Positions 12,037 to 53,153 of a stretch of DNA of 64,000 nucleotides are shown one piece after another. The translations under genes were made by a program, and so were the position numbers. The notes beneath the pieces are model-generated. The model worked only from the letters and a program-made list of their open reading frames with translations, made no database searches and was not told where the DNA came from. This DNA comes from Argopecten irradians (taxonomy: Eukaryota). Position 1 is the stretch's first letter. Each line of letters opens with the position of its first letter. Location of the stretch: the NCBI RefSeq assembly GCF_041381155.1, contig NC_091134.1:61182902-61246901 (forward strand). Direction: 5' to 3'.

Positions 12037-12151
12037 GTAAGTTGTTTGTCTATGATTTCCTGTAAGCCTTTGGGAGTCAGAAGTTGACAACCCTTTAATA
12101 ACATGTAACTGTCATATGTTATACAGTTCTATGTAAAACAAACTGGTTACT

Positions 12152-13792: not shown

Positions 13793-13873
13793 ATTTTACA
13801 CCGTTTGGCAGCCAAAGCAATCATTCGTGATTGGGAGGATGGACTGCTCTCCCCAGATGGTCTAAATCAACAG
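13793..13873 (+). CDS. Gene A exon (ILHRLAAKAIIRDWEDGLLSPDGLNQQ)
   Basis: Acceptor ttgatgttacag| and donor caacag|gtaaga. HRLAA is a VWA5A-like motif. Confidence 0.7.
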
Positions 13874-14688: not shown

Positions 14689-14790
14689 AGAATGAAGATG
14701 GACCTAAAAGGCTATGTTATAAAGCTTAGCAAAGAGTTCTGTATAGTGACTTCACTAACTAGCTTCATCGCAGTGGAAAAACGTGAAAAG
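14689..14790 (+). CDS. Gene A exon (RMKMDLKGYVIKLSKEFCIVTSLTSFIAVEKREK)
   Basis: Acceptor tttatttcag| and donor gaaaag|gtctga. TSFIAVE compares with SSFTAFIAI in VWA5A and ITIH. Confidence 0.7.
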
Positions 14791-17274: not shown

Positions 17275-18512
17275 GGCTAAGATGTGATATTGTTTATGTA
17301 GACAGAAGATCAAGTAAATGAGGTAGAGGTGTGATATTGTTTATGTAGACAGAAGATCAAGTAAATGAGGTAGAGGTGTGATATTATTTATGTAGACAGA
17401 AGATCAGGTAAATGAGGAAGAGATGTGATATTGTTTATGTAGACAGAAGATCAGGTAAATGAGGCTGAGATGTGATATTGTTTATGTAGACAGAAGGTCA
17501 GGTAAATGAGGTAGAGATGTGATATTGTTTATGTAGACAGAAGATCAGGTAAATGGGGTAGAGATGTGATATTGTTTATGTAGACAGAAGATCAAGTAAA
17601 TGAGGTAGAGATGTGATATTGTTTATGTAGACAGAAGATCAGGTAAATGAGGTAGAGATGTGATATTGTTTATGTAGACAGAAGATCAGGTAAATGAGGT
17701 AGAGATGTGATATTATTTATGTAGACAGAAGATCAGGTTAATGAGGTAGAGATGTGATATTGTTTATGTAGACAGAAGTTTAGTAAAAATGGGTAGTGAT
17801 ATGATATTGTTTATGTAGACAGAAGATCAGGTAAATGAGGTAGAGATGTGATATTGTTTATGTAGACAGAAGATCAGGTTAATGAGGTAGAGATGTGATA
17901 TTGTTTATGTAGACAGAAGATCAGGTAAATGAGGCTGAGATGTGATATTGTTTATGTAGACAGAAGATCAGGTAAATGAGGAAGAGATGTGATATTGTTT
18001 ATGTAGACAGAAGATCAGGTAAATGAGGTAGAGATGTGATATTGTTTATGTAGACAGAAGACCAGGTTAATGAGGTAGAGATGTGATATTGTTTATGTAG
18101 ACAGAAGACCAGGTTAATGAGGTAGAGATGTGATATTGTTTATGTAGACAGAAGACCAGGTTAATGAGGTAGAGATGTGATATTGTTTATGTAGACATAA
18201 GATCAGGTAAATGAGTTAGAGATGTGATATTGTTTATGTAGACAGAAGATCAGGTAAATGAGGTAGATATGTGATATTGTTTATGTAGACAGAAGATCAG
18301 GTAAATGAGGTAGAGATGTGATATTGTTTATGTAGACAGAAGATCAAGTAAATGAGGTAGAGATGTGATATTGTTTATGTAGACAGAAGATCAGGTAAAT
18401 GAGGTAGAGATGTGATATTGTTTATGTAGACAGAAGATCAAGTAAATGAGGTAGAGATGTGATATTGTTTATGTAGACAGAAGATCAGGAAATGAGGTAG
18501 AGATGTGATATT
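17275..18512. repeat. 37-bp minisatellite (unit ~tgtgatattgtttatgtagacagaagatcaggtaaatgaggtagaga) x ~33, left block
   Basis: Direct reading. It sits in a gene A intron. Confidence 0.9.
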
Positions 18513-18514
18513 GT

Positions 18515-20370: not shown

Positions 20371-22195
20371 GTAGACATAAGATCAGGTAAATGAGGAAGA
20401 GATGTGATATTATGAAGACAGAAGATCAGGTAAATGAGGAAGAGATGTGATATTGTTTATGTAGACAGAAGATCAGGTAAATGAGGTAGAGATGTGATAT
20501 TGTGTATGTAGACAGAAGATAAGGTAAATGAGGTAGAGATGTGATATTGTTTTTGTAGACAGAAGATAAGGTAAATGAGGAAGAGATGTGATATTGTTTT
20601 TGTAGACAGAAGATCAGGTAAATGGGGTAGAGATGTGATATTGTTTATGTAGACAGAAGATCAGGTAAATGAGGTAGAGGTGTGATATTGTTTATGTAGA
20701 CAGAAGATCAGGTAAATGAGGTAGAGATGTGATATTGTTTATGTAGACAGAAGATCAAGTAAATGAGGTAGAGGTGTGATATTGTTTATGTAGACAGAAG
20801 ATCAAGTAAATGAGGTAGAGATGTGATATTGTTTATGTAGACAGAAGATCAGGTAAATGAGGAAGAGATGTGATATTGTTTATGTAGACAGAAGATCAAG
20901 TAAATGAGGTAGAGGTGTGATATTGTTTATGTAGACAGAAGATCAAGTAAATGAGGTAGAGGTGTGATATTGTTTATGTAGACAGAAGATCAGGTTAATG
21001 AGGTAGAGATGTGATATTGTTTATGTAGACAGAAGACCAGGTTAATGAGGTAGAGATGTGATATTGTTTATGTAGATAGAAGATCAGGTAAATGAGGTAG
21101 AGATGTGATATTGTTTATGTAGACAGAAGATCAGGTTAATGAGGTAGAGATGTGATATTGTTTATGTAGACAGAAGGTCAGGTAAATGAGGTAGAGATGT
21201 GATATTGTTTATGTAGACAGAAGGTCAGGTAAATGAGGTAGAGATGTGATATTGTTTATGTAGACAGAAGGTCAGGTAAATGAGGTAGAGATGTGATATT
21301 GTTTATGTAGACAGAAGATCAGGTAAATGAGGTAGAGATGTGATATTGTTTATGTAGACAGAAGATCAGGTAAATGAGGTAGAGATGTGATATTGTTTAT
21401 GTAGACAGAAGACCAGGTAAATGAGGTAGAGATGTGATATTGTTTATGTAGACAGAAGATCAGGTTAATGAGGTAGAGATGTGATATTGTTTATGTAGAC
21501 AGAAGATCAGGTAAATGAGGTAGAGATGTGATATTGTTTATGTAGACAGAAGATCAAGTAAATGAGGTTGAGATGTGATATTGTTTATGTAGACAGAAGA
21601 TCAGGTAAATGAGGTAGAGATGTGATATTGTTTATGTAGACAGAAGATCAGGTAAATGAGGTAGAGATGTGATATTGTTTATGTAGACAGAAGATCAGGT
21701 AAATGAGGTTGAGATGTGATATTGTTTATGTAGACAGAAGATCAGGTAAATGAGGAAGAGATGTGATATTGTTTATGTAGACAGAAGATCAGGTTAATGA
21801 GGTAGAGATGTATATGTTTATGTAGACAGAAGATCATAATGAGGTGTGTGATATGTTATGTAGACAGAAGATCAGGTAAATGAGGTAGAGATGTGATATT
21901 GTTTATGTAGACAGAAGATCAGGTAAATGAGGTAGAGATGTGATATTGTTTATGTAGACAGAAGATCAGGTAAATGAGGTAGAGATGTGATATTGTTTAT
22001 GTAGACAGAAGATCAGGTAAATGAGGTAGAGATGTGATATTGTTTATGTAGATAGAAGATCAGGTAAATGAGGTAGAGATGTGATATTGTTTATATAGAC
22101 AGAAGGTAAGGTAAATGAGGTAGAGATGTGATATTGTTTATGTAGATAGAAGATCAGGTAAATGAGGTTGAGATGTGATATTGTGTAGACAAAAG
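20371..22195. repeat. 37-bp minisatellite, right block x ~49
   Basis: Same unit as the block at 17275-18512. Confidence 0.9.
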
Positions 22196-22610
22196 ATAAG
22201 GTAAATAGAGGTCAATCATTTAAATCGATGCATGTCATAATATTCTTCATGGATTGTAACCAAATTTGGCCAGAAACATCCTCTAAGAGTTTGTATAGTT
22301 ATTGGCTCTGACCCCCTGGGGCAGGAGGGGCGAGGTTTAATAGGAGAAATAGAGGTAATTCCTTTAAATCGCTACTAGTCATAGAGTTCTGCATTAAATT
22401 TGGCTAGAAACATCTTTTGAGGAAGGGGAACAGACTGTTTATAAATTTTGGCTGTAAAGCAGAATAAGTGGAGCCTAATGGGGAAATTAGTAAATATCTA
22501 AATTTACTTCAGAAAAGAAACAATGAACCTGTAATCAGAACCTTACTTGGCATTACAAACCAGGTGAGCGATACAGGCCCTCTTGGCCTCTTGTTTAGAT
22601 GATTTCAATA
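22196..22610 (-). mobile_element. Headless fragment of a satellite-D element: ~1.7 monomers plus tail (..accaggtgagcgatacaggccctcttggcctcttgttt)
   Basis: It matches the 31054-33057 element at the monomer and tail. Confidence 0.55.
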
Positions 22611-30957: not shown

Positions 30958-33057
30958 TCATGGCGCGGCGTCCGTCGTCGTCCGTGCCGTCCGTCCGTCC
31001 GTCCGTCCGTCCGTCCGTCGTCCGTCCGTCCGTCCGTCGTCCGTCCGTCCGTCAACATTTCCTTTAAATCGCTACTAGTCATAGAGTTCTGCATGGATTG
31101 TAACCAAATTTGGCCACAAACATCCTTGGGGGAGGGGGAACAGAACTTGTATAAATTTTGGCTCTGTCCCCCCCGGGGCAGGAGGGGCGGGGCCCAATAG
31201 GGGAAATAGAGGTAAATCCTATAAATCGCTACTTGTCCTAGAGTTCTGCATGGATTGTAATCAAATTTGACCACAAACATCCTTGGGGGAGGGGGAACAG
31301 AACTTGTATAAATTTTGGCTCTGGTCCCTCAGGGGCAGGAGGGGCGGGGCCCAATAGGGGAAATAGAGGTAAATCCTATAAATCGCTACTTGTCCTAGAG
31401 TTCTGCATGGATTGTAACCAAATTTGACCACAAACATCCTTGGGGGAGCAGAAACAGAACTTGTATATAAATTTTGGCTCTGGTCCCCCAGGGGCAGGAG
31501 GGGCGGGGCCCAATAGGGGAAATAAAGGTAAATCCTTTATATCGCTACTTGTAATAGAGTTCTACATGAATTGTAACCAAATTCGGCCACAAACATCCTT
31601 GGGGGAAGGGGAACAGAACTTGTGTAAATTTTGACTCTGGTCCCCCGGGGGCAGGAGGGGCGGGGCCCAATAGGGGAAATAGAGGTAAATCCTTTAAATC
31701 GCTACTAGTCATTGAGTTCTGAATGGAATGTAACCAAATTTGGCCACAAACATCCTTGGGGGAAGGGGAACAGACCTTGTATAAATTTTGGCTCTGACCC
31801 CCGGGGGCAGGAGGGGCGGGGCCCAATAGGGGAAATAGAGGTAAATCCTTTAAATCTCTACTAGTCATAGAGCTCTACATGAATTGTAACCAAATTTGGC
31901 CACAAACATCCTTGGGGGAAGGGGAACAGAACTTGTATAAATTTTGGTTCTGATCCCCCAGGGGCAGGAGGGGCGGGGCCCAATAGGGGAAATAGAGGTA
32001 AATCCTTTATATCGCTACTTGTCATAGAGTTCTGAATGGAATGTAACCAAATTTGGCCATAAACATCCTTATGGGAAGGGGAAGAGAACTTGTATAAATT
32101 TTGGCTCTAGTCCCCCGGGGGCAGGAGGGGCGGGGCCCAATAGGGGAAATAGAGGTAAATCCTTTAAATCGCTACTAGTCATTGAGTTCTGAATGGAATG
32201 TAACCAAAATTTGGCCACAAACATCCTTTGGGGAAGGGGAACAGAACTTGTATAGATTTTGGCTCTGACCCCCCCGGGGGCAGGAGGGGCGGGGCCCAAT
32301 AGGGGAAATAGAGGTAAATCCTTTATATCGCTACTTGTCATAGAGTTCTGAATGGAATGTAACCAAATTTGGCCATAAACATCCTTTGGGGAAGGGGAAG
32401 AGAACTTGTATAAATTTTGGCTCTAGTCCCCCGGGGGCAGGAGGGGCGGGGCCCAATAGGGGTAATAGAGGTAAATCCTTTAAATCGCTACTAGTCATTG
32501 AGTTCTGAATGGAATGTAACCAAAATTTGCCACAAGCATCCTTTGGGGAAGGGGAACAGAACTTGTATAGATTTTGGCTCTGACCCCCCCGGGGGCAGGA
32601 GGGGCGGGGCCCAATAGGGGAAATAGAGGTAAATCCTTTAAATTGCTACTAGTCATAGAGTTCTGCATGGATTGAAACCAAATTTGGCCACAAACATCCT
32701 TGGGGGAAGGGGAACAGAACTTGTATAAATTTTGACTCTGGCCCCCCGAGGACAGGACGGGTGGGGCCCAATAGGGGAAATAGAGGTAAATCCTATAAAT
32801 CACTTCTTGTCCTAGAGTTTTTCTTGGATTGTGACCAAATTTAGCCATAAACATCCTTGGGGGAAGGGGAACAGAACTTGTATAAATTTTGGCTCTGACC
32901 CCCTGGGGGCGGGAGGGGTGGGGCCCAATAGGGGATTTAGAGGTTAATATTAAAATTCCTTCAGAAAAGAAACAATGAACCTGTATTCAGAACATTACTT
33001 GGCATTACAAACCAGGTGAGCGATACAGGCCCTCTGGGCCTCTTGTTTACAAACAAC
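30919..33057 (-). mobile_element. HINE-like element carrying satellite D. On the + strand it reads, in order:
- hairpin agctcacctggcctgaagggccggtgagct
- (CGTC/CCGT)n microsatellite 30958-31053
- ~157-bp satellite D x12 (31054-32935)
- tail ..ttcagaaaagaaacaatgaacctgta..accaggtgagcgatacaggccctctgggcctcttgtttac
   Basis: Direct reading. The satellite-D monomer contains the GC-box-like aggaggggcggggccc. Confidence 0.6.
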
Positions 33058-33430: not shown

Positions 33431-35119
33431 TCTCCATTTGCCCACTTTTTATAATCTGATAATTACGGTAGCAGAATGTTATGACAAGGATTATAATCTA
33501 TTTCAGAGAAGTTAACCTGGATTTACCTGTATTTTACCTGTAAAATTTCACCTGTACTACTGTACTTATTCCATAAGGGTATCATTTATATATAACATGT
33601 ACATGTATGAAAATTATATTACATGGAAAAATCTATAAATTTGTTACTCTATTTGTGATCTCAGTTATGTTCTTGATATTTTTATATTAAGTGAACATAT
33701 CAAATGTATAATCAATATTTGGTACTAACAAAAAAAATCCTTTCTATCATTTTGACAAACATACATACATGCCATACAATTACATTAAACTTCATGTACA
33801 TATACACATAAATGATAACTAGAAAAATAGTTTATGGTAATATCTAATCATACAGTTTATATTTACGCCTCTTTTCATTAGAAATAACCTTTTTGACATT
33901 TTATTTTACTAAAATATATTGCAATATATCTTCATTTTTAGGAACCCCATTGTGCCAATTTGCTGACAAAAATCTTACCAGTACTTTTACGTTCATAATT
34001 GGACATGTGCGAAATTTATTATAAAAAGTCCTTTTTCGAAGTATCACTAGCTAAAAGATTACTGTTTTTCCGGGAAGATTGCGTGTTCAAACTATCCGGA
34101 ATCAGCAAAACTTTGAACAATTTATCATTGTTCTTCAGTTATAGTATAATGTTAATCAGTTACAATTACATTTGTAGTCTCTCAAACAATTTGCATTCTG
34201 CAGAAGTATATCTTATGTAAAAATCCTTAGGTTTTTTATAGTGTGACATATATATATACCAACTCATGCAAATTCAGTTTTGCAGGCTACTGTTTTCGAT
34301 ATTACAGTACAACATTTAGGACAAAAGATATCTCAATTAATCCAAATATCACATTCTGACTAAAAGTATATTATCTTAACCTTTTATTAAGTAGATATTT
34401 TAGGGGCCATCTGGATGTTTAAAAAAAATTGCGAAAATATCATCCTTGATGAAAAAATAGCTGGATTTTCTCAATGTGTAACATACAAATATATACAGTC
34501 ATTGTAGAATTGGAAGGCCGGGACATCGGTAAAATTTGGTATCGATTGTATCGTATAAAACTGTATACGATATAATTAATTATATACAATTATGTTATTT
34601 ACATGTATATATATTGTTACATGTATCCTCCTATAGAACAGTATCTTGTGATATATTCTCTAATTCTCTATATGTTTGGATAAGTACACATGCCAACATA
34701 AGAAGCATTATTATCTTATATGATAATGTTAGTGGAATATGTGTATTACTTTTGTCAAATATTTTGTAGCTAACAGGTTAGTAATTACAGGTACATACAG
34801 TACCGTGCCAAAAGTATTGTAAATTAATGGTAATATTACATATTTGTTTTTAAATAACTCTTGAAATTGCAACAGTTTGTAAAAAACAACTTGCTATTTT
34901 TGTGACAAAAACATATATAGTACTGTACTGTATATATTGATATCTTTCTATTTCCCCACTTTTGACAAACTATAGTTTGCTCAGGTAAACTAATACAGGT
35001 AAGCACAGGTAAAAATTAATATGGAAATGACTATAATTGGTTTTCCATTGTTCTTCTATACCAACACTTTTCTTTGTTCTCTAAAAAGTGGGCAAATGGA
35101 GAACACACCACCCAAGGTA

Positions 35120-35400
35120 CTGATATAAGGCATTTAGCATGCTTGGATAAAGGTTTATTAAAATTCACAGGGATCAAAAAGGCTAAACATTTTAAATGAC
35201 TTTTTGAACAATTTAGAGTACTTGTGACCTGGTATTGGGCCTGTAGCAAGCTAGCGTAAAGAGTTATAAAGTTTGTTGAAATGAATGACCTTGAATTTTA
35301 AATGACTTACTGCATACTTCATTTCTACTATATGTAGTCAGATGACTGTTAAGGCCCATTGGGCCTGACTTGTTAGAGTTATGCTCTTTTGTTACACAAG
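35120..35400 (-). mobile_element. Headless satellite-A fragment (~1.5 monomers) plus tail (gtcagatgactgttaaggcccattgggcctgacttgtt)
   Basis: Matches the satellite-A unit and the tail consensus. Confidence 0.5.
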
Positions 35401-35742
35401 TGGAGTAAAGTTGGATACCTGAATAACATTTCTGTTTTTTTTTCTGGTGTCAATTGTTTTTCTCGGTGTTCTGCCATACTTTTCTTGACCAGCTAAATCT
35501 CCCCTGGTCTAGCTATAGTGACACCCAGTCAGCACACTGGCAACATATGAAGTCCTACCATTGTAACAATAGGTGCTATAGTTATATCTAGCTATTAGCT
35601 TTGAGAGTTTAATTTTTGACCCTGATTGCATTGTTGTGGTTCCTCTCTCCAGAGTTCTTTGACACGTCTCACTCCTTATTTGATCCTAGCTGCTGTAACC
35701 AATATGTTTATACCATGAAAGCTGATATCTGTTCTGTTGCAG

Positions 35743-35846
35743 TCTATGATGTCTGAAGAGGAGTCGGATGAAGAAGAGGAAATGGGGTTTGGACTCTTTG
35801 AGGATGATCATGCAGCTGACTTCATTGTGGAAAAGCAGATGAAACT
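35743..35846 (+). CDS. Gene A acidic exon (SMMSEEESDEEEEMGFGLFEDDHAADFIVEKQMKL-). If the weak donor ct|gtataa is not used, the frame reads through to a TAA at 35869-35871 with AATAAA at 35946-35951, giving an alternative terminal exon.
   Basis: Acceptor ctgttgcag|. The frame is continuous with the exon at 29750-29804. The ribosomal P-protein-like EESDEEEEMGFGLFEDD motif was read directly. Internal donor use gives a phase-2 end that matches the next exon exactly. Confidence 0.5.
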
Positions 35847-35945
35847 GTATAAACTACATCTTACATATTAATTATTTGTGTATCAAGCTAACTTATTGTG
35901 ATTAGTTTTGTTATGACAATCACCATTTAGAAAACATAAATTTTG

Positions 35946-35951: not shown

Positions 35952-36497
35952 TGATCAATGCATTTTTCTCATATTTAATATTAGTATGATACCCTTGAAC
36001 TGCAAATATATGTACTTAATTTGATCAATCATCAGATGGTGGGCTATTCAAGGTGCATTTTGTCTTGTTATTGCCATTTCAAAGCGATGCTGTAGTGATC
36101 TTTTCATAGAGAAGAGTAGAATTTTAGACATGAAATTATCTTCAAAGGCTGATTGTCAAGTTTTCGGATTTACTATATCTACTTTTAAATTAGTTTCATC
36201 AATAGTCATAACCAGAATGACCTTTGAACTATCCTTAAGCTTCAACCTATGGTAAGGAGAGTTCCATGAAGTTTCCTCTATGTCAAATATATTATTACAT
36301 AAACTTGAATCATGAAGCAAGAACATTCTAAAAAAATTAATGAAAATAAAATGCCGGGAACTTACTTGTCTAAAGTTACACAAGTTAGCTGTATTTACTG
36401 CTGCTGGTTCTGCTTATAATAAAAAATGATTTTGTGTTTACAAAAAATGTATAATCTCTGTCAAAAGCAAGACATATTACATTTGTTTTTTTTACAG

Positions 36498-37920
36498 GAG
36501 TTCTGAAGAAGACTCGAAACAAGATCATCCAGTGACGCTACTATGTGCAGATTCTCTGCCTTCCTTATCAGAACGGTCTGCCTCACCTAAAACATCATTT
36601 TTACCCACTACAATAGAGGAGGACGTCTCAGAAGCTATTAGCTGTACCATTGCAAGGCCTGATAAGGTTGCCACATCGGTTTCCCCAAGGCCGTTAGGTG
36701 CAGGTCCACCCGAAGTCCCCCTATTTGACATGATGGATTTGAAATCCAGAGGCCCTCCAGATCATACTTCTGGTATGCTTAAAACCTATCGTCATCTAAG
36801 CCAATTTCATCCCATTGAATTGTCAGAAATACAACCTCCACCTGCCATGGCCTTTACACCTGGAGCAGCACCTTCCCATCAACAACAATCTGCAATGGCT
36901 GTTACACTGGGAGCTCCTCCACAAACACAGTCTGCCATGGCCTATACATCAGAAGTCCCTCTTCCTCTTCCACAACAAGCTGCTAATAGGTCAGCAATAA
37001 GTGCTCCATCAGCTAGGCCTCCTCCGCCTCCTCCGCCTCGTCAAATGCTTGACATGGCATTTACATTAAGTGGACCTCCTCCCCCACCAAGGGCTCCATC
37101 AGCTGGGCCTCCTCTGCCTCCTCAAATGCTTGACATGGCTTTTACATCAAGTGGACCTCCTCCCCCACCAAGGGCTCCATCAGCTAAACCTCCTCCGCCT
37201 CCTCCAATGCTTGGCAAGGATTTTACATCAAGTGGACCTCCTCGCCCACCAAGGGCTCCATCAGCTAGACCTCCTCTGCCTCCTCCAATGCTTGGCAAGG
37301 ATTTTACATCAAGTGGACCTCCTCGCCCACCAAGGGCTCCATCAGCTAAACCTCCTCCGCCTCCTCCAATGCTTGGCAAGGATTTTACATCAAGTGGACC
37401 TCCTCGCCCACCAAGGGCTCCATCAGCTAAACCTCCTCCGCCTCCTCCAATGCTTGGCAAGGATTTTACATCAAGTGGACCTCCTCGCCCACCAAGGGCT
37501 CCATCAGCTAGACCTCCTCTGCCTCCTCCAATGCTTGACAAGGCTTTTACATCAAGTGGACCACCTCCTCCACCTCCTGTATCTCTCATGGCTGTTACAT
37601 CAAGTAGACCTCCTTCCCGATCAAATTTTCGATTAGCTGGACCACCTCCACCTCCTCCAATGCCTTACAAGGCTTTTACATCAAGTGGATCTTCTTCCCC
37701 ACCAATGCCTCAAATTACATTTTGTAAAATGTCTGCAAAGATTCCTTCAAGTCATAAAAGTTACTCATCTGACGATGATGATGAGTATTACAGGGTGCAT
37801 TCTCTCAGTAAGCCTTCCAGACCTGATCCAATTCCAATGTCTTTGGATTATGACCTTGATGATGTACCAAAATATAAGGATGAAGGCAAAGATGGGGTTG
37901 TGCATTTTGCATGTTCACAG
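36498..37920 (+). CDS. Gene A large exon. It is proline-rich and low-complexity, with 8 tandem 23-aa repeats (FTSSGPPRPPRAPSAKPPPPPPMLGKD) encoded by 69-bp DNA repeats (about 36990-37560). It has an FH1-like polyproline character.
   Basis: A 470-aa ORF with acceptor gtttttttttacag| and donor tcacag|gtatgt. It starts with 1 nt completing a codon and ends in phase 0. Confidence 0.6.
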
Positions 37921-38776
37921 GTATGTCCAAGAGTTTGTGATTGATATATTGCAATACATGATATTTACTGATATCATAATTATTTAGGTATTTTTTGCTA
38001 AATAAATACATAATACATTATGTATATTATATTTGATTCAAAAGTGTAGTCATGTACATTCCTAGAACCGATCAAATTGCACTAAATAATTCAATCTATA
38101 CATATGAGAAACGGATACATTTTATCATAAATGTACTAGTTAATCTACATTAGTGCTCCTTGATTACCTATACCTCATGAGAAAACATGCATTCGTTTAT
38201 ATAAGGGTTGTCAAACCGGTTGGAATTCACTAACCGGTTACTCGATATATTTTCCGATAAAGTAACCGGTTAGTTGGTGAACTTATATGTAACAATGGCT
38301 ATAATTTAACGTACCGGTTTGTGTGCTGCAGTTTAAACGAGTTGTACTAACGACAGTGTGACTACCTTTTTAATAAGACTATTTTGTTAAACCAACACTT
38401 TCAATTCTGATATTTCTAAGAACTACTTTCGGTATGGAATCTGGAAATTCCAGATTCTGGAAAGAATAGAAAGTACAAAAAAGTTAAACTGACTTTATGC
38501 AGCGAGTCGTGAACAGTTGCTGATAGCAAATGGAGCCACAGCAAATTCTACCAATGTTGTGTTCGTTTGTTAACTACTATTAGCGTAGGCCTTTTGTTTA
38601 GACGTATTGCTATATAATTTGAAACTGTCACATCAAGAATAATGTAAATACTGCAAGTTTCTCTAAACATTGTACATTGTAAAGAGCCTGAATAAACCTG
38701 AATAAAGTTTGAAGAGATAGACTACAGGTATGATGTGTGTCTAGTTTTCAATCATTTGTTTACCAATATCTTTTTT

Positions 38777-39228: not shown

Positions 39229-39306
39229 GTACTAGAAAAATGTGACAGCATTCCTTCACCTGCCAGTATTCTAGCTGATGAAACAGAGGTTATTGTTATT
39301 TCTGAG
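39229..39306 (+). CDS. Gene A exon (VLEKCDSIPSPASILADETEVIVISE)
   Basis: Acceptor tctttaatttag| and donor tctgag|gtaagc. It is 78 nt and phase 0. Confidence 0.5.
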
Positions 39307-39670
39307 GTAAGCAATTTTGGATGTGTTTGGAACAGTCATTAAATACATGAATAAGGATACTGAGTTATACCTAGTTTTTATATACTTAGTCATAAAGTGA
39401 GACATATCTTCTCGTATTTCTTTATCATGGGGTATTAAAATGAAACTGAAATTTATTTACAGTGTTTATCAAGAGATAAATAACATGTAAGTGTGAAAAC
39501 TTGAACACATACTCCAAATAGAATAGAAATATACTTTTAAATTGTTGCCTCACACACCACAGTGCTTTAAAATTTATCAATAGGATTGAATTGTATATAA
39601 ACTGTCATTACATTGGAAAGGTTTGAATGTAACCATAAAATCTTAAATTGGGATTTTCTCAATCTTACAG

Positions 39671-39754
39671 GAGTTGACAGCACAAAAGGCTTCTCGTACA
39701 AAGAAAAAGAAGGCAATGTTGTCCATTTCAAAGCCACTCAAAAAGATCGACCTG
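39671..39754 (+). CDS. Gene A exon (ELTAQKASRTKKKKAMLSISKPLKKIDL)
   Basis: Acceptor ctcaatcttacag| and donor gacctg|gtaaat. It is 84 nt and phase 0. Confidence 0.5.
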
Positions 39755-39865
39755 GTAAATAATTAAGCTTCAACACATCTTCTGGTTCTAAAGATGTGAT
39801 ACATTTTTCTCTGACTGTATTTATAACACCCTCTGTTGTAGGTTATCATTAGTATAAAGTCATAG

Positions 39866-42800
39866 GTAGGTATTGTTATACTGTCCTTGGTACATAGTCA
39901 TTGCTAGGTATTGTTATACTGTCCTTGGTACATAGTCATTGTTAGGTATTGTTATACTTGTCCATTGGTAATAGTCATTGTTAGGTATTTTTATACTGTC
40001 CTTGGTATATAGTCATTGTTAGGATTGTTATACTGTCCTTGGTACATAGTCATTGTTAGATATTGTTATACTATCCTTGGTATATAGTCATTGTTAGGTA
40101 TTGTTATACTGTCCTTGGTATATAGTCATTGTTAGGTATTGTTATACTGTCCTTGGTACATAGTCATTGTTAGGTATTGTTATACTGTCCTTGGTATATA
40201 GTCATTGTTAGGTATTGTTATACTATCCTTGGTATATAGTCATTGTTAGGTATTGTTATACTGTCCTTGGTATATAGTCATTGTTAGGTATTGTTATACT
40301 GTCCTTGGTATATAGTCATTGTTAGGTATTGTTATACTGTCCTTGGTATATAGTCATTGTTAGGTATTGTTATACTGTCCTTGGTATATAGTCATTGTTA
40401 GGTATTGTTATACTTTCCTTGGTATATAGTCATTGTTAGGTATTGTTATACTATCCTTGGTATATAGTCATTGTTAGGTATTGTTATACTGTCCTTGGTA
40501 TATAGTCATTGTTAGGTATTGTTATACTGTCCTTGGTATATAGTCATTGTTAGGTATTGTTATACTGTCCTTGGTATATAGTCATTGTTAGGTATTGTTA
40601 TACTGTCCTTGGTATATAGTCATTGTTAGGTATTGTTATACTGTCCTTGGTATATAGTCATTGTTAGGTATTGTTATACTGTCCTTGGTATATAGTCATT
40701 GTTAGGTATTGTTATACTGTCCTTGGTATATAGTCATTGTTAGGTATTGTTATACTATCCTTGGTATATAGTCATTGTTAGGTATTGTTATACTGTCCTT
40801 GGTATATAGTCATTGTTAGGTATTGTTATACTGTCCTTGGTATATAGTCATTGTTAGGTATTGTTTATCTGTCCTTGGACTATATAGTCATTGTTAGGTA
40901 TTGTTATACTGTCCTTGGTATAGTCATTGTTCATTGTTATACTTCCTGGTATAGTCATTGTTTATTGTTATACTGTCCTTGGTATATAGTCATAGTTAGG
41001 TATTGTTATACTGTCCTTGGTACATAGTCATTGTTAGGTATTGTATTGTACTGTCCTTGGTACATAGTCATTGTTAGTATTGGTATTGTTATACTGTCCT
41101 TGGTACATAGTCATTGTTAGGTATTGTTATACTGTCCTTGGTATATAGTCATTGTTAGGTATTGTTATACTGTCCTTGGTACATAGTCATTGTTAGGTAT
41201 TGTTATACTGTCCTTGGTACATTAGTCATTGTTAGGTATTGTTATACTGTCCTTGGTATATAGTCATTGTTAGGTATTGTTATTACTGTCCTTGGTACAT
41301 AGTCATTGTTAGGTATTGTTATACTGTCCTTGGTATATAGTCATTGTTAGGTATTGTTATACTGTCCTTGGTATATAGTCATTGTTAGGTATTGTTATAC
41401 TGTCCTTGGTATATAGTCATTGTTAGGTATTGTTATACTGTCCTTGGTACATAGTCATTGTTAGGTATTGTTATACTATCCTTGGTATATAGTCATTGTT
41501 AGGTATTGTTATACTGTCCTTGGTATATAGTCATTGTTAGGTATTGTTATACTGTCCTTGGTATATAGTCATTGTTAGGTATTGTTATACATCCTTGGTA
41601 TAGTCATTGTTAGGTATTGTCCTTTAGGTATTGTTATACTGTCCTTGGTATATAGTCATTGTTAGGTATTGTTATACTGTCCTTGGTATATAGTCATTGT
41701 TAGGTATTGTTATACTGTCCTTGGTATATAGTCATTGTTAGGTATTGTTATACTGTCCTTGGTATATAGTCATTGTTAGGTATTGTTATACTGTCCTTGG
41801 TATATAGTCATTGTTAGGTATTGTTATACTGTCCTTGGTATATAGTCATTGTTAGGTATTGTTATACTGTCCTTGGTATATAGTCATTGTTAGGTATTGT
41901 TATACTGTCCTTGGTACATTATCATTGTTAGGTATTGTTATACTGTCCTTGGTACATAGTCATTGTTAGGTATTGTTATACTGTCCTTGGTACATAGTCA
42001 TTGTTAGGTATTGTTATACTGTCCTTGGTATATAGTCATTGCTAGGTATTGTTATACTGTCCTTGGTACATAGTCATTGTTAGGTATTGTTATACTGTCC
42101 TTGGTATATAGTCATTGTTAGGTATTGTTATACTGTCCTTGGTATATAGTCATTGTTAGGTATTGTTATACTGTCCTTGGTATATAGTCATTGTTAGGTA
42201 TTGTTATACTGTCCTTGGTATATAGTCATTGTTAGGTATTGTTATACTATCCTTGGTATATAGTCATTGTTAGGTATTGTTATACTGTCCTTGGTACATA
42301 GTCATTGTTAGGTATTGTTATACTATCCTTGGTATATAGTCATTGCTAGGTATTGTTATACTATCCTTGGTATATAGTCATTGTTAGGTATTGTTATACT
42401 GTCCTTGGTATATAGTCATTGTTAGGTATTGTTATACTGTCCTTGGTATATAGTCATTGTTAGGTATTGTTATACTGTCCTTGGTATATAGTCATTGTTA
42501 GGTATTGTTTATACTATCCTTGGTATATAGTCATTGTTAGGTATTGTTATACTGTCCTTGGTATATAGTCATTGTTAGGTATTGTTATACTGTCCTTGGT
42601 ACATAGTCATTGTTAGGTATTGTTATACTGTCCTTGGTACATATAGCCATTGTTAGGTATTGTTATACTGTCCTTGGTATATAGTCATTGTTAGGTATTG
42701 TTATACTGTCCTTGGTATATAGTCATTGTTAGGTATTGTTATACTATCCTTGGTATATAGTCATTGTTAGGTATTGTTATACTGTCCTTGGTATATAGTC

Positions 42801-45800
42801 ATTGTTAGGTATTGTTATACTGTCCTTGGTATCATAGTCATTGTTAGGTATTGTTATACTGTCCTTGGTATATAGTCATTGTTAGGTATTGTTATACTGT
42901 CCTTGGTATATAGTCATTGTTAGGTATTGTTATACTGTCCTTGGTATATAGTCATTGTTAGGTATTGTTATACTGTCCTTGGTATATAGTCATTGTTAGG
43001 TATTGTTATACTGTCCTTGGTATATAGTCATTGTTAGGTATTGTTATACTGTCCTTGGTACATAGTCATTGTTAGGTATTGTTATACTGTCCTTGGTACA
43101 TAGTCATTGTTAGGTATTGTTATACTGTCCTTGGTACATAGTCATTGTTAGGTATTGTTATACTGTCCTTGGTACATAGTCATTGTAGGTAGGTACTTCC
43201 TTGGTATAGCATTGTTAGGTATTGTTATACTGTCCTTGGTACATAGTCATTGTTAGGTATTGTTATACTGTCCTTGGTACATAGTCATTGTTAGGTATTG
43301 TTATACTGTCCTTGGTATATAGTCATTGTTAGGTATTGTTATATACTGTCCTTGGTATATAGTCATTGTTAGGTATTGTTATACTGTCCTTGGTATATAG
43401 TCATTGTTAGGTATTGTTATACTGTCCCTTAGGTATTGGTCCTTGGTATATAGTCATTGTTAGGTATTGTTATACTGTCCTTGGTATATAGTCATTGTTA
43501 GGTATTGTTTATACTGTCCTTGGTACATAGTCATTGTTAGGTATTGTTATACTATCCTTGGTATATAGTCATTGTTAGGTATTGTTATACTGTCCTTGGT
43601 ATATAGTCATTGTTAGGTATTGTTATACTATCCTTGGTATATAGTCATTGTTAGGTATTGTTATACTGTCCTTGGTATATAGTCATTGTTAGGTATTGTT
43701 ATACTGTCCTTGGTACATAGTCATTGTTAGGTATTGTTATACTGTCCTTGGTATATAGTCATTGTTAGGTATTGTTATACTGTCCTTGGTATATAGTCAT
43801 TGTTAGGTATTGTTATACTGTCCTTGGTACATAGTCATTGTTAGGTATTGTTATACTGTCCTTGGTACATAGTCATTGTTAGGTATTGTTATACTGTCCT
43901 TGGTATATAGTCATTGTTAGGTATTGTTATACTATCCTTGGTATATAGTCATTGTTAGGTATTGTTATACTGTCCTTGGTACATAGTCATTGTTAGATAT
44001 TGTTATACTGTCCTTGGTACATAGTCATTGTTAGGTATTGTTATACTGTCCTTGGTATATAGTCATTGTTAGGTATTGTTATACTGTCCTTGGTACATAG
44101 TCATTGTTAGGTATTGTTATACTGTCCTTGGTACATAGTCATTGTTAGGTATTGTTATACTGTCCTTGGTATATAGTCATTGTTAGGTATTGTTATACTA
44201 TCCTTGGTATATAGTCCATGTTAGGTATTGTTATACTGTCCTTGGTATATAGTCATTGTTAGGTATTGTTATACTGTCCTTGGTATATAGTCATTGTTAG
44301 GTATTGTTATACTGTCCTTGGTATATAGTCATTGTTAGGTATTGTTATACTGTCCTTGGTATATAGTCATTGTTAGGTATTGTTATACTGTCCTTGGTAT
44401 ATAGTCATTGTTAGGTATTGTTATACTATCCTTGGTATATAGTCATTGTTAGGTATTGTTATACTGTCCTTGGTACATAGTCATTGCTAGGTATTGTTAT
44501 ACTGTCCTTGGTATATAGTCATTGTTAGGTATTGTTATACTGTCCTTGGTATATAGTCATTGTTAGGTATTGTTATACTGTCCTTGGTATATAGTCATTG
44601 TTAGGTATTGTTATACTATCCTTGGTACATAGTCATTGTTAGGTATTGTTATACTATCCTTGGTACATAGTCATTGTTAGGTATTGTTATACTGTCCTTG
44701 GTATATAGTCATTGTTAGGTATTGTTATACTGTCCTTGGTATATAGTCATTGTTAGGTATTGTTATACTGTCCTTGGTATATAGTCATTGTTAGGTATTG
44801 TTATACTGTCCTTGGTATATAGTCATTGTTAGGTATTGTTATACTGTCCTTGGTATATAGTCATTGTTAGGTATTGTTATACTGTCCTTGGTATATATAG
44901 TCATTGTTAGGTATTGTTATACTGTCCTTGGTATATAGTCATTGTTAGGTATTGTTATACTGTCCTTGGTACATAGTCATTGTTAGGTATTGTTATACTG
45001 TCCTTGGTACATAGTCATTGTTAGGTATTGTTATACTATCCTTGGTATATAGTATTGTACTATCCTTGGTATATAGTCATTGTTAGGTATTGTTATACTG
45101 TCCTTGGTATATAGTCATTGTTAGGTATTGTTATACTGTCCTTGGTATATAGTCATTGTTAGGTATTGTTATACTATCCTTGGTATATAGTCATTGTTAG
45201 GTATTGTTATACTGTCCTTGGTACATAGTCATTGTTAGGTATTGTTATACTATCCTTGGTAACATAGTCATTGTTAGGTATTGTTTATACTATCCTTGGT
45301 ATATAGTCATTGTTAGGTATTGTTATACTGTCCTTGGTATATAGTCATTGCTAGGTATTGTTATACTGTCCTTGGTATATAGTCATTGTTAGGTATTGTT
45401 ATACTGTCCTTGGTATATAGTCATTGTTAGGTATTGTTATACTGTCCTTGGTATATAGTCATTGTTAGGTATTGTTATACTGTCCTTGGTACATAGTCAT
45501 TGTTAGGTATTGTTATACTGTCCTTGGTATATAGTCATTGTTAGGTATTGTTATACTGTCCTTGGTACTTATAGTCATTGTTAGGTATTGTTATACTGTC
45601 CTTGGTATATAGTCATTGTTAGGTATTGTTATACTGTCCTTGGTACATAGTCATTGTTAGGTATTGTTATACTGTCCTTGGTATATAGTCATTGTTAGGT
45701 ATTGTTATACTGTCCTTGGTACATAGTCATTGTTAGGTATTGTTATACTATCCTTGGTATATAGTCATTGTTAGGTATTGTTATACTGTCCTTGGTATAT

Positions 45801-46878
45801 AGTCATTGTTAGGTATTGCTAGGTATTGTTATACTGTCCTTGGTACATAGTCATTGTTAGGTATTGTTATACTATCCTTGGTATATAGTCATTGTTAGGT
45901 ATTGTTATACTGTCCTTGGTATATAGTCATTGTTAGGTATTGTTATACTGTCCTTGGTATATAGTCATTGTTAGGTATTGTTATACTATCCTTGGTATAT
46001 AGTCATTGTTAGGTATTGTTATAGGTATTGTTATACTGTCCTTGGTATATAGTCATTGTTAGGTATTGTTATACTGTCCTTGGTATATAGTCATTGTTAG
46101 GTATTGTTATACTGTCCTTGGTACATAGTCATTGTTAGGTATTGTTATACTGTCCTTGGTATATAGTCATTGTTAGGTATTGTTATACTGTCCTTGGTAT
46201 ATAGTCATTGTTAGGTATTGTTATACTGTCCTTGGTATATAGTCATTGTTAGGTATTGTTATACTATCCTTGGTATATAGTCATTGTTAGGTATTGTTAT
46301 ACTGTCCTTGGTATATAGTCATTGTTAGGTATTGTTATACTGTCCTTGGTATATAGTCATTGTTAGGTATTGTTATACTGTCCTTGGTACATAGTCATTG
46401 TTAGGTATTGTTATACTGTCCTTGGTATATAGTCATTGTTAGGTATTGTTATACTGTCCTTGGTATATAGTCATTGTTAGGTATTGTTATACTGTCCTTG
46501 GTATATAGTCATTGTTAGGTATTGTTATACTGTCCTTGGTATATAGTCATTGTTAGGTATTGTTATACTGTCCTTGGTATATAGTCATTGTTAGGTATTG
46601 TTATACTGTCCTTGGTATATAGTCATTGTTAGGTATTGTTATACTGTCCTTGGTATATAGTCATTGTTAGGTATTGTTATACTATCCTTGGTATATAGTC
46701 ATTGTTAGGTATTGTTATACTGTCCTTGGTATATAGTCATTGTTAGTGTTAGGTATTGTTATACTGTCCTTGGTATATAGTCATTGTTAGGTATTGTTAT
46801 ACTGTCCTTGGTATATAGTCATTGTTAGGTATTGTTATACTGTCCTTGGTATATAGTCATTGTTAGGTATTGTTATAT
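39866..46878. repeat. 36-bp minisatellite (tatagtcattgttaggtattgttatactgtccttggta), ~7 kb and ~195 units, in a gene A intron
   Basis: Direct reading. Units carry occasional t/c (tatag/catag) and g/a variants. Confidence 0.95.
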
Positions 46879-47384
46879 CTTTACTTTACATTCCTTATAC
46901 TATTCTATAGTTAAAGTCTTTTAAAGTACATTTTTTTCAGATGTTTGTGCACGTGAAATGTTGACCAGTCAACATCGAAATGCTGACTGCTTACTTCATG
47001 TTGATGTTACAATTTATATTTGGCACGTATTTGTCTAAATGATAAAAGATATAACAAAACATTTGTAGAGTTTTTGGTCAACATGTTATATGGTGATTTG
47101 TTTTACTGAACTAACCCTAACCCTAGTTCAACGTAACACATGTTGACCTCAAACTCCGTCAACGTAAATGCAGTCAAGTGTCTGTCAAGAGAGACCAAAT
47201 AGGATCAAATGAATTGTTTTTCAAAACAAAATTTTCTTCAATGCTTGGAATTTCAAAACAAAATTTTCTTCAATGCTTGGAAATAATTATTATACTGTAG
47301 AACCCTTTATCGTATTTATAATAGATTGAAAAATCTTATGGTGGAAGCATGATACCTGAACATGTCTTTATGATATACAAATAG

Positions 47385-47498
47385 GAGCAGTCTGTTTCGT
47401 GGAGGAAATGTGAGTCACCAGACTTCTTCAGAAAGATGGATCAAGAAAATGACTTACTTGAAGCTGATCAGAAGAAGCCAACAGAACATGCAAAGAAG
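47385..47498 (+). CDS. Gene A exon (EQSVSWRKCESPDFFRKMDQENDLLEADQKKPTEHAKK)
   Basis: Acceptor tacaaatag| and donor aagaag|gttggt. It is 114 nt and phase 0. Confidence 0.5.
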
Positions 47499-48094
47499 GT
47501 TGGTATATAAAGCAGGTACAATGAAGTAGCAGATCCAACATATGTTTTCATCAGGTAATGTCGAAAGAAATGTCTACAGATACTTCTAAGTTATAGGTAA
47601 TAATTAGTCCCAACAATTCTAAGTTAGCGTATTACAGAGAGATCTGTCCGTACAGGTAGGTATTGATTGTTATGTCAAGTTTTTCAGAGAAAAGACATAA
47701 TTTTCACTCACAAACGTCTTTAATGTTTACATTACTACTGCACAGTAGAGCTTGATGTTACTACTAAACCCAATGTATGATAATTTACAATTTTTACATT
47801 TGTTTTGGCTCAGCTGGCAAAGTTTTACCTTCATCAGAGGTCACGAAAAGATTGGATTCATGACAGTATGAGAATTTACAAAGGATATTCTTAAAATTAA
47901 TCAATAAGAAAATTAAAAGTGATTAAAAGTGTTCTATTTATCTTTGTTTATTCGGGTTATCGATTGAATGATTTGTTACTGTTTAGTTGGTTTTCCTTTC
48001 AACAACAGCAACAGTCCAGAAACCCATTAGTCCAGAAACCCATTATTTCTCATCAAATATTTTCCTCTATGCATACGTGTCGGGTTTTTTTCAT

Positions 48095-48122
48095 CCTTTA
48101 TATATATATATATATATATATT
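48095..48122. repeat. (TA)n microsatellite
   Basis: Direct reading. Confidence 0.9.
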
Positions 48123-48641
48123 AATTTCATTTCTTATAACTGGAATAACTGTAGTGTAGTTAGAAAATTAGCACCTTTGTAAATAGTTATGTTTTACAAG
48201 AAATACGAGCACTTGGCTTAAAATTTTTAGCCTAAAATATCTGGCGCGAACAGTGCTAAGATGTATTTACCGTTAAAATATGTATTAACTGGTAATGACG
48301 TTACATTCAATACTTTCCTCCATAGACAGATATTCTGTAATACAAAATGAATGCAAAGACGGAATAAAAATTATAGGCATACATATATATACTGTAAACA
48401 TGGATATTTTAGCGAGTGCTTAATTTCGCGATTTGCATGCATAAACTCCCCCTCTCCTAAATTTCCATGTTTATAGTAGATATAAAATTTGATATGTATG
48501 ATAGGATTGAGGATAAGTGTACTAGAATAGACTTTGATTATACTATAACCTTTTGAGCTGATGGTTTCTCTGATACATTTAATAGATAATGCAGGATTTT
48601 GTTCTACAACATGATGTGTTTGTTCTTTTGATTTATTCAAG

Positions 48642-48768
48642 ATACCAGTTGGTAGGAAGTGTCATGGAATGAGAGTAACAGAGAGCATTGAAAGAAATAC
48701 GGAGGAATTAAGCTTCCAAAGGGCTGGAGCCTATCGTACAAGGTCTTCTGGTGGATCTTGCTGTATGG
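48642..48768 (+). CDS. Gene A candidate exon (IPVGRKCHGMRVTESIERNTEELSFQRAGAYRTRSSGGSCCM-)
   Basis: Acceptor tttattcaag| and donor tgtatgg|gtatat. It ends with 1 extra nt, which the next confirmed exon needs. There is no homology support. Confidence 0.3.
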
Positions 48769-49602
48769 GTATATGCTATATTTGATATTTCACACACTTG
48801 TGACCTTGTTGGGAAGATTACTTATCAGATTTGCTTATCTGAATGACCTTGAGCTTTATTTCAAGTTCTATAATCTAATTTTGAAGATTGTTTAAACACA
48901 ATTTAAGCATTCGAGAGCTTTAGATTTCTGAATTAACCAAAAGGCGAGGAATTAAGACCCATTGAATGTTTTCTTTACTCTAGTGCTTCAGTCTGTATTG
49001 ACTTTGGCGTTGGTTGAAAATATATACATTTCATCTCAAATTATTTCTGTGTAAAGAGATCATATTCTATCATCCCTACAGCTCTAGAAAGGAAAGTAAA
49101 TTATTGAACTTTTAAATTGAACTTTGTTAATTGTTTCGCAGAATTAATAGTCAGTGTTTGAAGAGACACTGGTGTGACAACATACTTTTGTTTCTTGAAA
49201 AAAAAACCCACTGATATTTAGAAGGACTAATCTGTTGTTTGGGCAGCACAGTCCCAATACCGCTCCATAATAGAGGACCTTTGCTGTTTCTTCCTGGTAG
49301 GCCCTAATACAACACTTGATATTTTTCCAATTTCAACAAAATCTAGGATTAAGCAACAGGCAATGCCTATGTAAGTTCTCTTTCTCTCACCATAATAACC
49401 ACCTGTAAAACCACACAGTCAATCACAGTGCCCCGTTATTCAATTCTTTTGATGTGCATCAAAGGTCCAAACTTCCTTTTTATCTTTGCTCACACGGTTT
49501 TCAGTTTTCCTACAAAAATATCCCATAGGTGGATATAATGACAGTGATAGTAACCACTGGAATATCAAGGTGAATAATAGAACGCAAACGGTTTCTTGGT
49601 AG

Positions 49603-49776
49603 GCCCTAGAACGGCAACATATGAGAACACACGCAATGGAAGAGCTCTACATGTAGATGGACGATGGGTTCAGGATAAAGAAAGACCAGAAGAACTGCAT
49701 GGATTTTTGTCTAAAGTCAAAGATAAATCTGGAGGCAAAGGCCGAAGCTTAAATGATCTGACTGACAGAGAGCCTG
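49603..49776 (+). CDS. Gene A possible additional exon (..PRTATYENTRNGRALHVDGRWVQDKERPEELHGFLSKVKDKSGGKGRSLNDLTDREP-)
   Basis: Acceptor tttcttggtag| and strong donor cctg|gtgagt. It is phase-neutral (1 nt in, 1 nt out), so frame cannot confirm or exclude it. Confidence 0.2.
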
Positions 49777-52004: not shown

Positions 52005-52105
52005 ATCTTGCCGATGTCGGATCAAAAATGCCAGTCATTGCTAAGGCAGCAAAGAAAAACCTCAGTAAAAAAGAATTTGACATCCTGAAAAAAATTCAAA
52101 ATAAG
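52005..52105 (+). CDS. Gene A exon (-D LADVGSKMPVIAKAAKKNLSKKEFDILKKIQNK)
   Basis: Acceptor gttatgttttag| and donor aataag|gtacat. Confidence 0.6.
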
Positions 52106-52427: not shown

Positions 52428-52524
52428 TTAGGGGGTTGGACGAGGGATGAACTGGAGAAGGACCTGTATATTGATTTATCAGCCTGTATTGAGGTCCTAA
52501 ACACTGCAGGACTGAAGTCACTTG
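52428..52524 (+). CDS. Gene A exon (LGGWTRDELEKDLYIDLSACIEVLNTAGLKSL-)
   Basis: Acceptor gtattacag| and donor cacttg|gtaggt. It resembles the VWA5A C-terminal NGSWDLNEDLAKILG. Confidence 0.65.
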
Positions 52525-52857: not shown

Positions 52858-53153
52858 GTGTGAAGGTCGCTATGGAAATGGAGAATGTTTTAGTGACAGC
52901 ATTTGTTGTCATGTGGATACTCAAGACACTGGCACCAGAGTTATTCCCCTTGGATACCACCACCAGGAATTGGTCCCAAACTGCCGTGGAAATAGCAGCA
53001 GCCGTACTGGAGATATATGACCATGATCGGTCGTTGTTGGACAAGGCTGTTCAGTACTGTGACCAGTTAGAGAGGGCACACCCAGGTGTCGCCTATATAT
53101 TGGAACTGGGGTCTAACTGGTTCAATGTGGCTTCAAAAATATTAGGGTTATGA
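52858..53153 (+). CDS. Gene A terminal coding exon (-G VKVAMEMENVLVTAFVVMWILKTLAPELFPLDTTTRNWSQTAVEIAAAVLEIYDHDRSLLDKAVQYCDQLERAHPGVAYILELGSNWFNVASKILGL*)
   Basis: Acceptor tatttttttag| and stop TGA at 53151-53153. It resembles the VWA5A C-terminus ..SSGWATILAVIWLHS..ELLERKAVAWMRAH. Confidence 0.65.

Follow-up and report, generated by a model that had tools for sequence, protein, structure and literature searches.

Among described systems, the one closest to the element treated here is found in vertebrate PARP4 (vault PARP). In human PARP4, exon 30 (residues 1223-1582) exceeds all other exons in size, is always present in transcripts and has been predicted to encode a disordered segment (Daugherty et al. 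2014, PMC4038475); among vertebrates it is highly variable in length and sequence, with positive selection in primates and bats (PMC4038475). The exon 30 region falls within the disordered segment that joins the MVP-interaction domain to the ITIH-like region (Suskiewicz et al. 2023, PMC10450202), and this human domain, designated MINT or MVPID, spans residues 1562/1570-1724 (PMC2169495, PMC10450202, PMC12280208). Here we analyzed a coding tandem repeat in a PARP4-like gene of the bay scallop Argopecten irradians, located in a stretch of 64,000 nucleotides (contig NC_091134.1 of RefSeq assembly GCF_041381155.1, positions 61,182,902 to 61,246,901 of the forward strand), which is called the window below and is numbered from its first letter. 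Our preferred reading, to which we assign a probability of roughly 0.6, is that a young, lineage-specific array of about seven 81-bp units lengthens a proline-rich tether and multiplies a short motif in the linker of this PARP4-like protein.

An earlier interpretation of the window, made without database searches (here the sequence-only reading), had reported an in-frame, head-to-tail coding tandem repeat at 36990-37560, and both Tandem Repeats Finder (TRF) and a layout of the sequence in an 81-bp register confirmed its presence. TRF returned one array at 37027-37574 with a period of 81, 6.8 copies, 94% matches, 0% indels and a score of 914. The unit quoted in the sequence-only reading, PPPPPRAPSAKPPPPPPMLGKDFTSSG, was found verbatim at 37156-37236. 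The period given there, 69 bp or 23 residues, has to be corrected to 81 bp or 27 residues according to TRF and the layout, and we regard the smaller figure as a miscount because the unit that was written out has itself 27 residues. The reported number of eight units is likewise replaced by six near-identical units, one diverged unit and two degenerate relics, which compares with the 6.8 copies of TRF; eight is how often FT[SL]SG occurs in the exon, with seven occurrences exactly 27 residues apart and one further on. Moreover, six copies of a 33-nt core of the unit lie exactly 81 bp apart, against a chance expectation of none, and the rest of the window contains no further copy.

The consensus unit of the core array is PPRPPRAPSA[KR]PP[PL]PPPMLGKDFTSSG, and proline makes up 38% of the array. 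Each of the six core units is identical to the central unit at 72-81 of 81 bases in the 81-bp layout; the differences between units amount to 0-9 of 81 positions, and units 4 and 5 (37318-37398 and 37399-37479) are identical to each other. The two relic units at the 3' edge share 54 of 81 bases mutually and about 20-33 of 81 with the core units, and both retain the pattern of polyproline plus [AD][FV]T. Peptides of the linker include DFTSSGPPRPPR and APSAKPPPPPPMLGK.

The repeat is real and coding. The exon of 1.4 kb in which the sequence-only reading had placed it was recovered at 1423 nt (Table 1), with an acceptor AG at 36496-36497 after a polypyrimidine tract and a donor GT at 37921-37922 (CAG/GTATGT, boundary at 37920/37921). 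The frame from 36499 is open for 474 codons, and the preceding acidic exon has a phase-2 donor (AAA CT/GTATAA) that joins in frame with the single leading base at 36498. In fact, the exon is an exact match to residues 452-925 of RefSeq isoform X1, and exon and array are unchanged in all 8 RefSeq isoforms, which come from one genome in a single assembly of the species and differ only at other exons. It is the largest exon of the gene, the next largest in the map of isoform X1 having 291 nt, and its GC content is 43.5% against 32-34% in the surroundings. We also found the spurious open reading frames (ORFs) that the sequence-only reading had mentioned, of 188 aa in another plus frame (37070-37633) and of 180 aa on the minus strand (37125-37664). 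Because two plus frames and one minus frame are open within the repeat, openness there proves nothing; outside it, 230 unique flanking codons (164 + 66) are open in the same frame, for which the chance is about 2e-8 at 33% GC.

The exon is composed of 25% proline and 13.5% serine, disorder-promoting residues account for 67-78% of the sequence, and the array lies on the disordered side of the charge-hydropathy plot. Judged from this composition, the linker to which the exon belongs is very probably disordered.

As for the gene, the C-terminal 164 residues were used in an exhaustive HMMER search, which recovered a 1280-aa protein of 100% identity, XP_069141939.1; it is annotated in Argopecten irradians as "protein mono-ADP-ribosyltransferase PARP4-like isoform X2" and belongs to the 8 RefSeq isoforms. 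The joined conserved ORFs match PARP4-like proteins of Lingula, Anneissia and Dysidea, together with a vWA protein of Tegillarca and a 701-aa "uncharacterized" protein of Ylistrum balloti. The sequence-only reading had called the product a vWA protein, and vWA-domain exons do lie upstream in the same gene, as seen by Pfam VWA_3 (E=4.8e-6, 27.1 bits against a cutoff of 27) and tblastn; its description of a recent, proline-rich in-frame coding repeat inside a large exon of a vWA-containing protein is supported. Isoform X1 was mapped onto the window as 24 exons from 8575 to 53150. The exons for the C-terminal part of the ITIH-like region align to PARP4-like proteins, and the VIT domain is located before the first position of the window. 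When the exon and the full isoform X1 were scanned with Pfam, VWA_3 was the only match, in the isoform, and the linker gave none.

The C-terminal domain is 72% identical to that of Ylistrum. A profile made from it and 12 homologs, 13 species in all, matched full-length human PARP4 in PDB (9bw6, 9bw7, 11jf) with E=2.1e-18 over residues 1574-1707. A single sequence was not sufficient for this: with either the C-terminal domain or the exon as the query, PDB yielded chance matches only (YihQ, SPT16 and a V5-tag-like GKPIPNPLLGLDST in a tagged construct). PF26156, presumably the MVP-ID family named by UniRef, did not match in the Pfam copy that we used. In a last round of homology searching, the MINT profile brought in just three short ENA fragments and no vertebrate linkers. 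A homology search of the exon, which the sequence-only reading had proposed, was carried out and gave no match; this outcome is uninformative, since the search also missed the identical RefSeq protein in the collection, its prefilter being saturated by polyproline proteins. We considered and rejected a transcript in which the big exon is joined directly to the first MINT exon, as phase 0 would meet phase 1 and RefSeq shows five intermediate exons; one of these, 49603-49776, is absent in isoforms X7 and X8, and its splice sites were read in the sequence.

Judged by these matches, the gene is PARP4-like (vault PARP), with the array between the vWA and MINT-like domains. The exon encodes part of a Pro/Ser-rich linker of about 880 residues that runs from the ITIH-like VIT/vWA body to the C-terminal domain of MVP-interaction type. 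The cytoskeletal or adaptor-binding module that the sequence-only reading had seen as added to a vWA protein is thus replaced by a part of a PARP4-like linker. Full-length molluscan homologs have the order BRCT, PARP_reg, PARP, VIT, VWA, linker and MINT, all of it in one protein in the Potamilus homolog. By analogy with them, the repeat would be on one polypeptide with the PARP catalytic domain in the bay scallop as well. In the Ylistrum locus, the linker/MINT model is directly preceded by a separate gene model of BRCT-PARP-VIT-VWA type. A clear vWA exon is present at 276-359, yet it is outside the RefSeq models. The RefSeq start at 8575 despite this exon, with the Ylistrum gene also split, may reflect an artificial split of the models or an internal promoter.

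We then compared the linker among species. Ylistrum has a large homologous exon (about 34990-35930 of its locus, L001), which carries an array of 48-bp or 16-aa units of the form PPPPPP-KSAMAFT-xAx, in 10.5 + 4.4 copies with 70-83% matches; the 81-bp unit was not found in the Ylistrum locus. The array is thus young and lineage-specific, given its near-identical units and the absence of the unit from that locus. Identity between Argopecten and Ylistrum is 80-92% in the ITIH-like C-terminal exons and 58-75% in the MINT exons, and nothing in Argopecten residues 236-1116 is alignable with Ylistrum, so the linker is extremely diverged relative to its flanks.

A short motif is kept across this divergence. 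The window exon has nine occurrences of [AD]FT[SPL] and that of Ylistrum 13, where shuffles give about 0.1, and runs of at least five prolines number eight and seven, respectively. The 12-mer ATGGCYTTTACA, encoding M-A-F-T, is present at 36847 and 37135 and six times in the Ylistrum exon, where 0.02-0.06 are expected. Furthermore, the upstream units PPPAMAFTPG, SAMAVTLG and SAMAYTSE are of the SAMAFT type, like the 16-aa repeat of Ylistrum, while a single 'SAKDFTSGPP' unit is retained at the 5' margin of the Ylistrum array. The pearl oyster Pinctada homolog has PMSAMAFSAGP units, an A/V-F-S variant.

Every ortholog examined carries its own linker repeat (periods in Table 1). Phenylalanine followed by G, S or T is enriched about twofold over shuffles in most of the linkers compared, and polyproline runs number 0 in the chiton and 2 in the freshwater mussel Potamilus. 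Polyproline is not a conserved feature of the linker, because the content of the orthologous linkers is heterogeneous, each having different repeats. On this comparison, the conserved trait is repeat turnover in a low-complexity tether instead of polyproline.

Several observations on these orthologous models stand apart. In the Liolophura protein (P0029), linker residues at 1318-1407 match Pfam Nucleoporin_FG, and the Plakobranchus linker (P0024) matches the Rpb1 CTD heptad model. C-terminal PARP4 fragments have been automatically named POM121 in Aplysia (P0019) and 'RNA polymerase II subunit rpb1' in Plakobranchus, which is probable misannotation. In addition, Hsp70 and 14-3-3 fragments are found in the PARP4-like models of Pinctada imbricata (P0016, 403-544) and Branchiostoma (P0025, 284-318), which are probably chimeric predictions.

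The preferred reading can be put as follows. The array probably arose by unequal crossing-over or replication slippage, as suggested by the central units being most alike and the edge units diverged. Its unit would descend from a 'KDFTSGPP' variant of the older 16-residue PPPPPP-KSAMAFT unit, which still forms the Ylistrum array; this variant, combined with the 11-residue piece PPRPPRAPSAK, would give the 27-residue unit. The array would lengthen a flexible tether rich in polyproline II, its 189 residues spanning up to about 590 A when fully extended. Each copy would add one [AD]-F-T-S-S-G motif between two short polyproline tracts, and the repeated motif could offer a multivalent, low-affinity docking surface for a putative partner.

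Whether the tether belongs to a vault component bears on this reading. In mammals, PARP4 docks within the lumen of the vault (PMC12280208). Bivalve gill is rich in MVP (PMC5302490), and sea urchin vaults show bands of about 200 kDa, with a VPARP homolog in the genome (PMC550661). It is thus plausible, though uncertain, that the scallop protein is anchored in vaults. In the peptide AYILELG, encoded within 53105-53125, the position before the invariant LELG, which corresponds to the human MVP-contacting R1689, is Ile in both scallops and varies (M, S, T, Q, R) among the invertebrate homologs (PMC12280208).

Several points weigh against the preferred reading and its extensions. First, the MVP residues that contact PARP4 are reported to be conserved only in vertebrates (Lodwick et al., PMC12280208), and the human MINT contacts R1689 and Q1682 are Ile and Ala in the scallops according to our alignments. 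Second, the RefSeq models begin at a Met inside the vWA domain (8575), and the catalytic half is outside the window. Third, the whole exon is borderline in the charge-hydropathy plot, its disorder being deduced from composition. Fourth, a profile of the 18-position motif unit gave no PARP4 match in PDB at E<=10; a human 'VASFGSAAPP' was seen and is anecdotal only, no similarity to the human linker being detected. Fifth, the sharing of the [AD]-F-T motif may come from common descent and concerted evolution instead of selection. Finally, the differences between units are at neutral proportions, and therefore no selection on the array can be deduced from them. The sequence-only reading had suggested this comparison of synonymous and nonsynonymous differences, and it yielded 8 nonsynonymous and 1 synonymous differences against a neutral expectation of 70-72% nonsynonymous; with only nine variant states, the counts are indistinguishable from neutrality, and at least 8/9 nonsynonymous has a probability of about 0.2 under neutrality, so the excess is not significant.

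These neutral proportions fit an inert expansion, in which slippage or unequal exchange produced an array that is tolerated in a sequence-indifferent spacer and whose motif and proline tracts bind nothing. The same explanation accommodates a linker whose repeat period and sequence differ in every lineage, which cannot be aligned even between two scallops and in which no Pfam domain is found in the exon. However, it leaves unexplained why [AD]FT[SPL] with flanking polyproline was kept in 9-13 copies in two scallops with otherwise unalignable linkers, and in the A/V-F-S variant in the pearl oyster. The exon is kept in all RefSeq isoforms, and its mammalian equivalent, always in transcripts, holds strictly conserved residues (PMC4038475), which also argue against a wholly indifferent spacer. 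We therefore regard the inert expansion as possible, though somewhat unlikely.

The sequence-only reading had favored an FH1-like platform whose polyproline tracts would bind profilin, SH3 and WW domains. In a fuller form of this model, with EVH1 adaptors included, the tracts would tie the protein to the actin cytoskeleton. Proline-recognition-type sequence is indeed partly present. The window exon has eight runs of at least five prolines, six of at least six and none of at least eight, as well as 3 PPLP and 11 PPR; the regular expressions of SH3 type match 4 times for [RK]xxPxxP and 8 times for PxxPx[RK], where shuffles give 2.8 each, a weak signal in a sequence of 25-38% proline. The motifs of the other two classes are missing, with neither the FPPPP-type EVH1 motif ([FWYL]PxPhiP) nor the WW-type PPxY occurring in the window exon or its Ylistrum homolog. 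Moreover, no FH2 or other formin domain was found by Pfam in the full isoform X1, so that the resemblance to FH1 is one of composition only. In a mouse pull-down with GST-VASP-EVH1, Parp4 and Mvp were recovered, but no longer once an EVH1 inhibitor was added, a result unverified by its authors (PMC9581539), and this speaks for such adaptors. Against them stand the SH3-type matches at just about 2-3 times the shuffled expectation, the lack of conservation of polyproline runs among orthologs and the position of mammalian PARP4 in the vault lumen (PMC12280208). We consider a cytoskeletal platform doubtful. As to class membership, the FH1, EVH1-ligand, WW class I and FG-nucleoporin classes were each tried and rejected, the sequence lacking in each case a defining feature.

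A broader and more speculative proposal is that the PARP4 linker of bilaterians is a repeatedly regenerated multivalent module, more than a mere spacer, of Phe plus a small residue within proline-rich or polar spacers, FG-like in chiton, sea slugs and amphioxus and of the A-F-T/S plus polyproline type in pteriomorph bivalves; we hold this to be quite doubtful. An equally tentative extension would have the module bind a conserved partner or form a cohesive phase in the vault or around it, with the scallop array as its newest and possibly pathogen-driven expansion.

Recurrent positive selection by pathogens, as proposed for exon 30 of mammalian PARP4, might have turned over the linker repeats. 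The linker occupies the same position as the positively selected, length-variable vertebrate exon (PMC4038475, PMC10450202), it diverges far faster than its flanks, and nearly all differences between units alter the amino acid. But the nonsynonymous excess is not significant, and relaxed constraint predicts rapid change equally, so we find such an arms race improbable. Lastly, that the array is an intronic minisatellite or an assembly artefact with a fortuitous open frame is scarcely credible, for although the array alone is open in three frames, the coding frame also stays open through the unique flanks, consensus splice sites match the phase of the adjoining exons, the exon is in 8 RefSeq isoforms and has a homologous annotated coding exon in Ylistrum, and an array of 570 bp is easily spanned by sequencing reads.

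Taken for what it is, the array is a coding minisatellite in a hypervariable, disordered PARP4 linker, an ordinary feature that brings no new kind of biology. The gene and the exon are already in RefSeq, and the repeat itself is not described in the literature that we searched. Its interest lies in four points. First, the picture of a hypervariable largest exon is extended from vertebrate PARP4 to molluscs, with the variability achieved by birth and turnover of in-frame repeats. Second, scallops and pearl oyster have kept nothing of the linker in common except [AD]-F-T/S beside polyproline, which so provides a concrete candidate peptide. Third, a MINT-type C-terminal domain is kept in molluscs, chiton and amphioxus, which bears on the suggestion that PARP4 joined the vault only in vertebrates. 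Fourth, for annotation, the low-complexity linkers cause C-terminal fragments of PARP4 to be separated from the catalytic half and given wrong names (POM121, Rpb1).

The features of the gene and the linker repeat periods are compiled in Table 1.

Table 1. Features of the PARP4-like gene in the window and linker repeat periods in Argopecten and other species
Feature	Positions in window	Strand	Size or period	Basis
vWA / ITIH-like exons 276-359, 8575-8745, 11001-11105, 11872-12036	276-14790	+		Pfam, tblastn with Tegillarca homolog P0001, exon map
vWA / ITIH-like exons, continued	13178-13258, 13793-13873, 14689-14790	+		tblastn with P0001, exon map
Preceding acidic exon, SMMSEEESDEEEEMGFGLFEDD...EKQMK-L	35743-35846	+		sequence, phase, exon map, match to P0001
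Whole linker exon	36498-37920	+	1423 nt = 1 base + 474 codons	open frame, splice sites, RefSeq match
Older single-copy motif units PPPAMAFTPG, SAMAVTLG, SAMAYTSE, upstream of array	36835-36993	+		translation
Diverged first unit AISAPSARPPPPPPPRQMLDMAFTLSG, 5' edge of array	36994-37074	+		53/81 bases identical to central unit, same register
Core array, six units in register	37075-37560	+	81 bp (27 aa)	TRF, 81-bp layout, 33-mer spacing
Two degenerate relic units, PPPPPPVSLMAVTSS... and PPPPPPMPYKAFTSSG..., 3' edge of array	37561-37722	+		81-bp layout
Small linker exons ~39229-39306, 39671-39754, 47385-47498, 48642-48770, 49603-49776	39229-49776	+		exon map
C-terminal helical domain (MINT/MVPID), three exons, including stop	52005-52105, 52428-52524, 52858-53153	+		splice sites
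Linker repeat, Argopecten			27 residues
Linker repeat, Ylistrum			16 residues
Linker repeat, Pinctada			14 residues
Linker repeat, Aplysia			12 residues
Linker repeat, Plakobranchus			24 residues
Linker repeat, Liolophura (chiton)			10/20/30 residues
Linker repeat, Branchiostoma (amphioxus)			5/10 residues

Other repeats were observed in the introns of the gene. The intron that separates the PARP4-like exons 39671-39754 and 47385-47498 is filled by a 7-kb satellite (39852-46877) of 38-bp units, with 183 copies, 92% matches and a strong skew in both GC and AT. At 17280-22212, in one intron of the same gene, a 47-bp satellite forms two blocks (17280-18516 and 20370-22212) around a 146/432-bp higher-order array (18612-20182). 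A tandem family of 155-157 bp is found at 9382-10833 and 31060-32948 and has a close relative in the Ylistrum PARP4 locus (L001, 36176-36500); most of its columns are invariant, with two copies per species, and it is better conserved between the scallops than the linker exon. On the minus strand of the first large intron, a 270-aa ORF (3599-4408) resembles by eye the C-terminal part of a LINE-type reverse transcriptase and has no Pfam match at E<=0.01. From about 61250 to 63998 on the plus strand, the window contains the start of a neighbouring gene with He_PIG Ig-like, EGF and F5/8 type C (discoidin) domains.

Four kinds of known systems can be compared with the scallop array. The first is that of the nucleoporin FG repeats, since several other invertebrate PARP4 linkers have Phe plus a small residue in low-complexity spacers; the scallop motif, however, is [AD]-F-T and not FG, and its spacers are polyproline and not polar. 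With Pfam Nucleoporin_FG (PF13634), no match was obtained in the scallop exon, and among the orthologs only the chiton passes. The second is the FH1 region of formins, with which the array shares multiple short polyproline tracts (5-7 Pro, some PPLP), short spacers, a disordered region and a tandemly repeated origin. Unlike FH1, it is in a protein without an adjacent FH2 or formin context, and its units carry a non-proline F-T-S-S-G core.

The third comprises the coding minisatellites, or variable number tandem repeats, of disordered regions, such as those in proline-rich salivary proteins and the mucin-type repeats. Here the likeness includes the head-to-tail arrangement, a unit that is a multiple of three, near-identical copies, diverged edges and the lack of indels (period 81 and 0% indels in the scallop array). 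The difference from the salivary and mucin cases is that the scallop host protein is intracellular and not secreted.

The fourth is exon 30 of vertebrate PARP4. No sequence similarity of the scallop linker to the human linker was detected, five extra small exons stand between the big exon and the MINT exons in the scallop, and the scallop variability takes the form of birth and turnover of tandem repeats (81-bp in Argopecten, 48-bp in Ylistrum). On the other hand, both exons belong to the same gene family, lie between the vWA and MINT/MVPID domains, are predicted to be disordered and are included in all annotated isoforms, and in both the length and sequence vary between related species while the flanking domains are conserved. 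From position, composition and pattern of divergence, we take the scallop exon to correspond, in an invertebrate, to the hypervariable, disordered exon 30 region of vertebrates, with its variability appearing here as repeat turnover.

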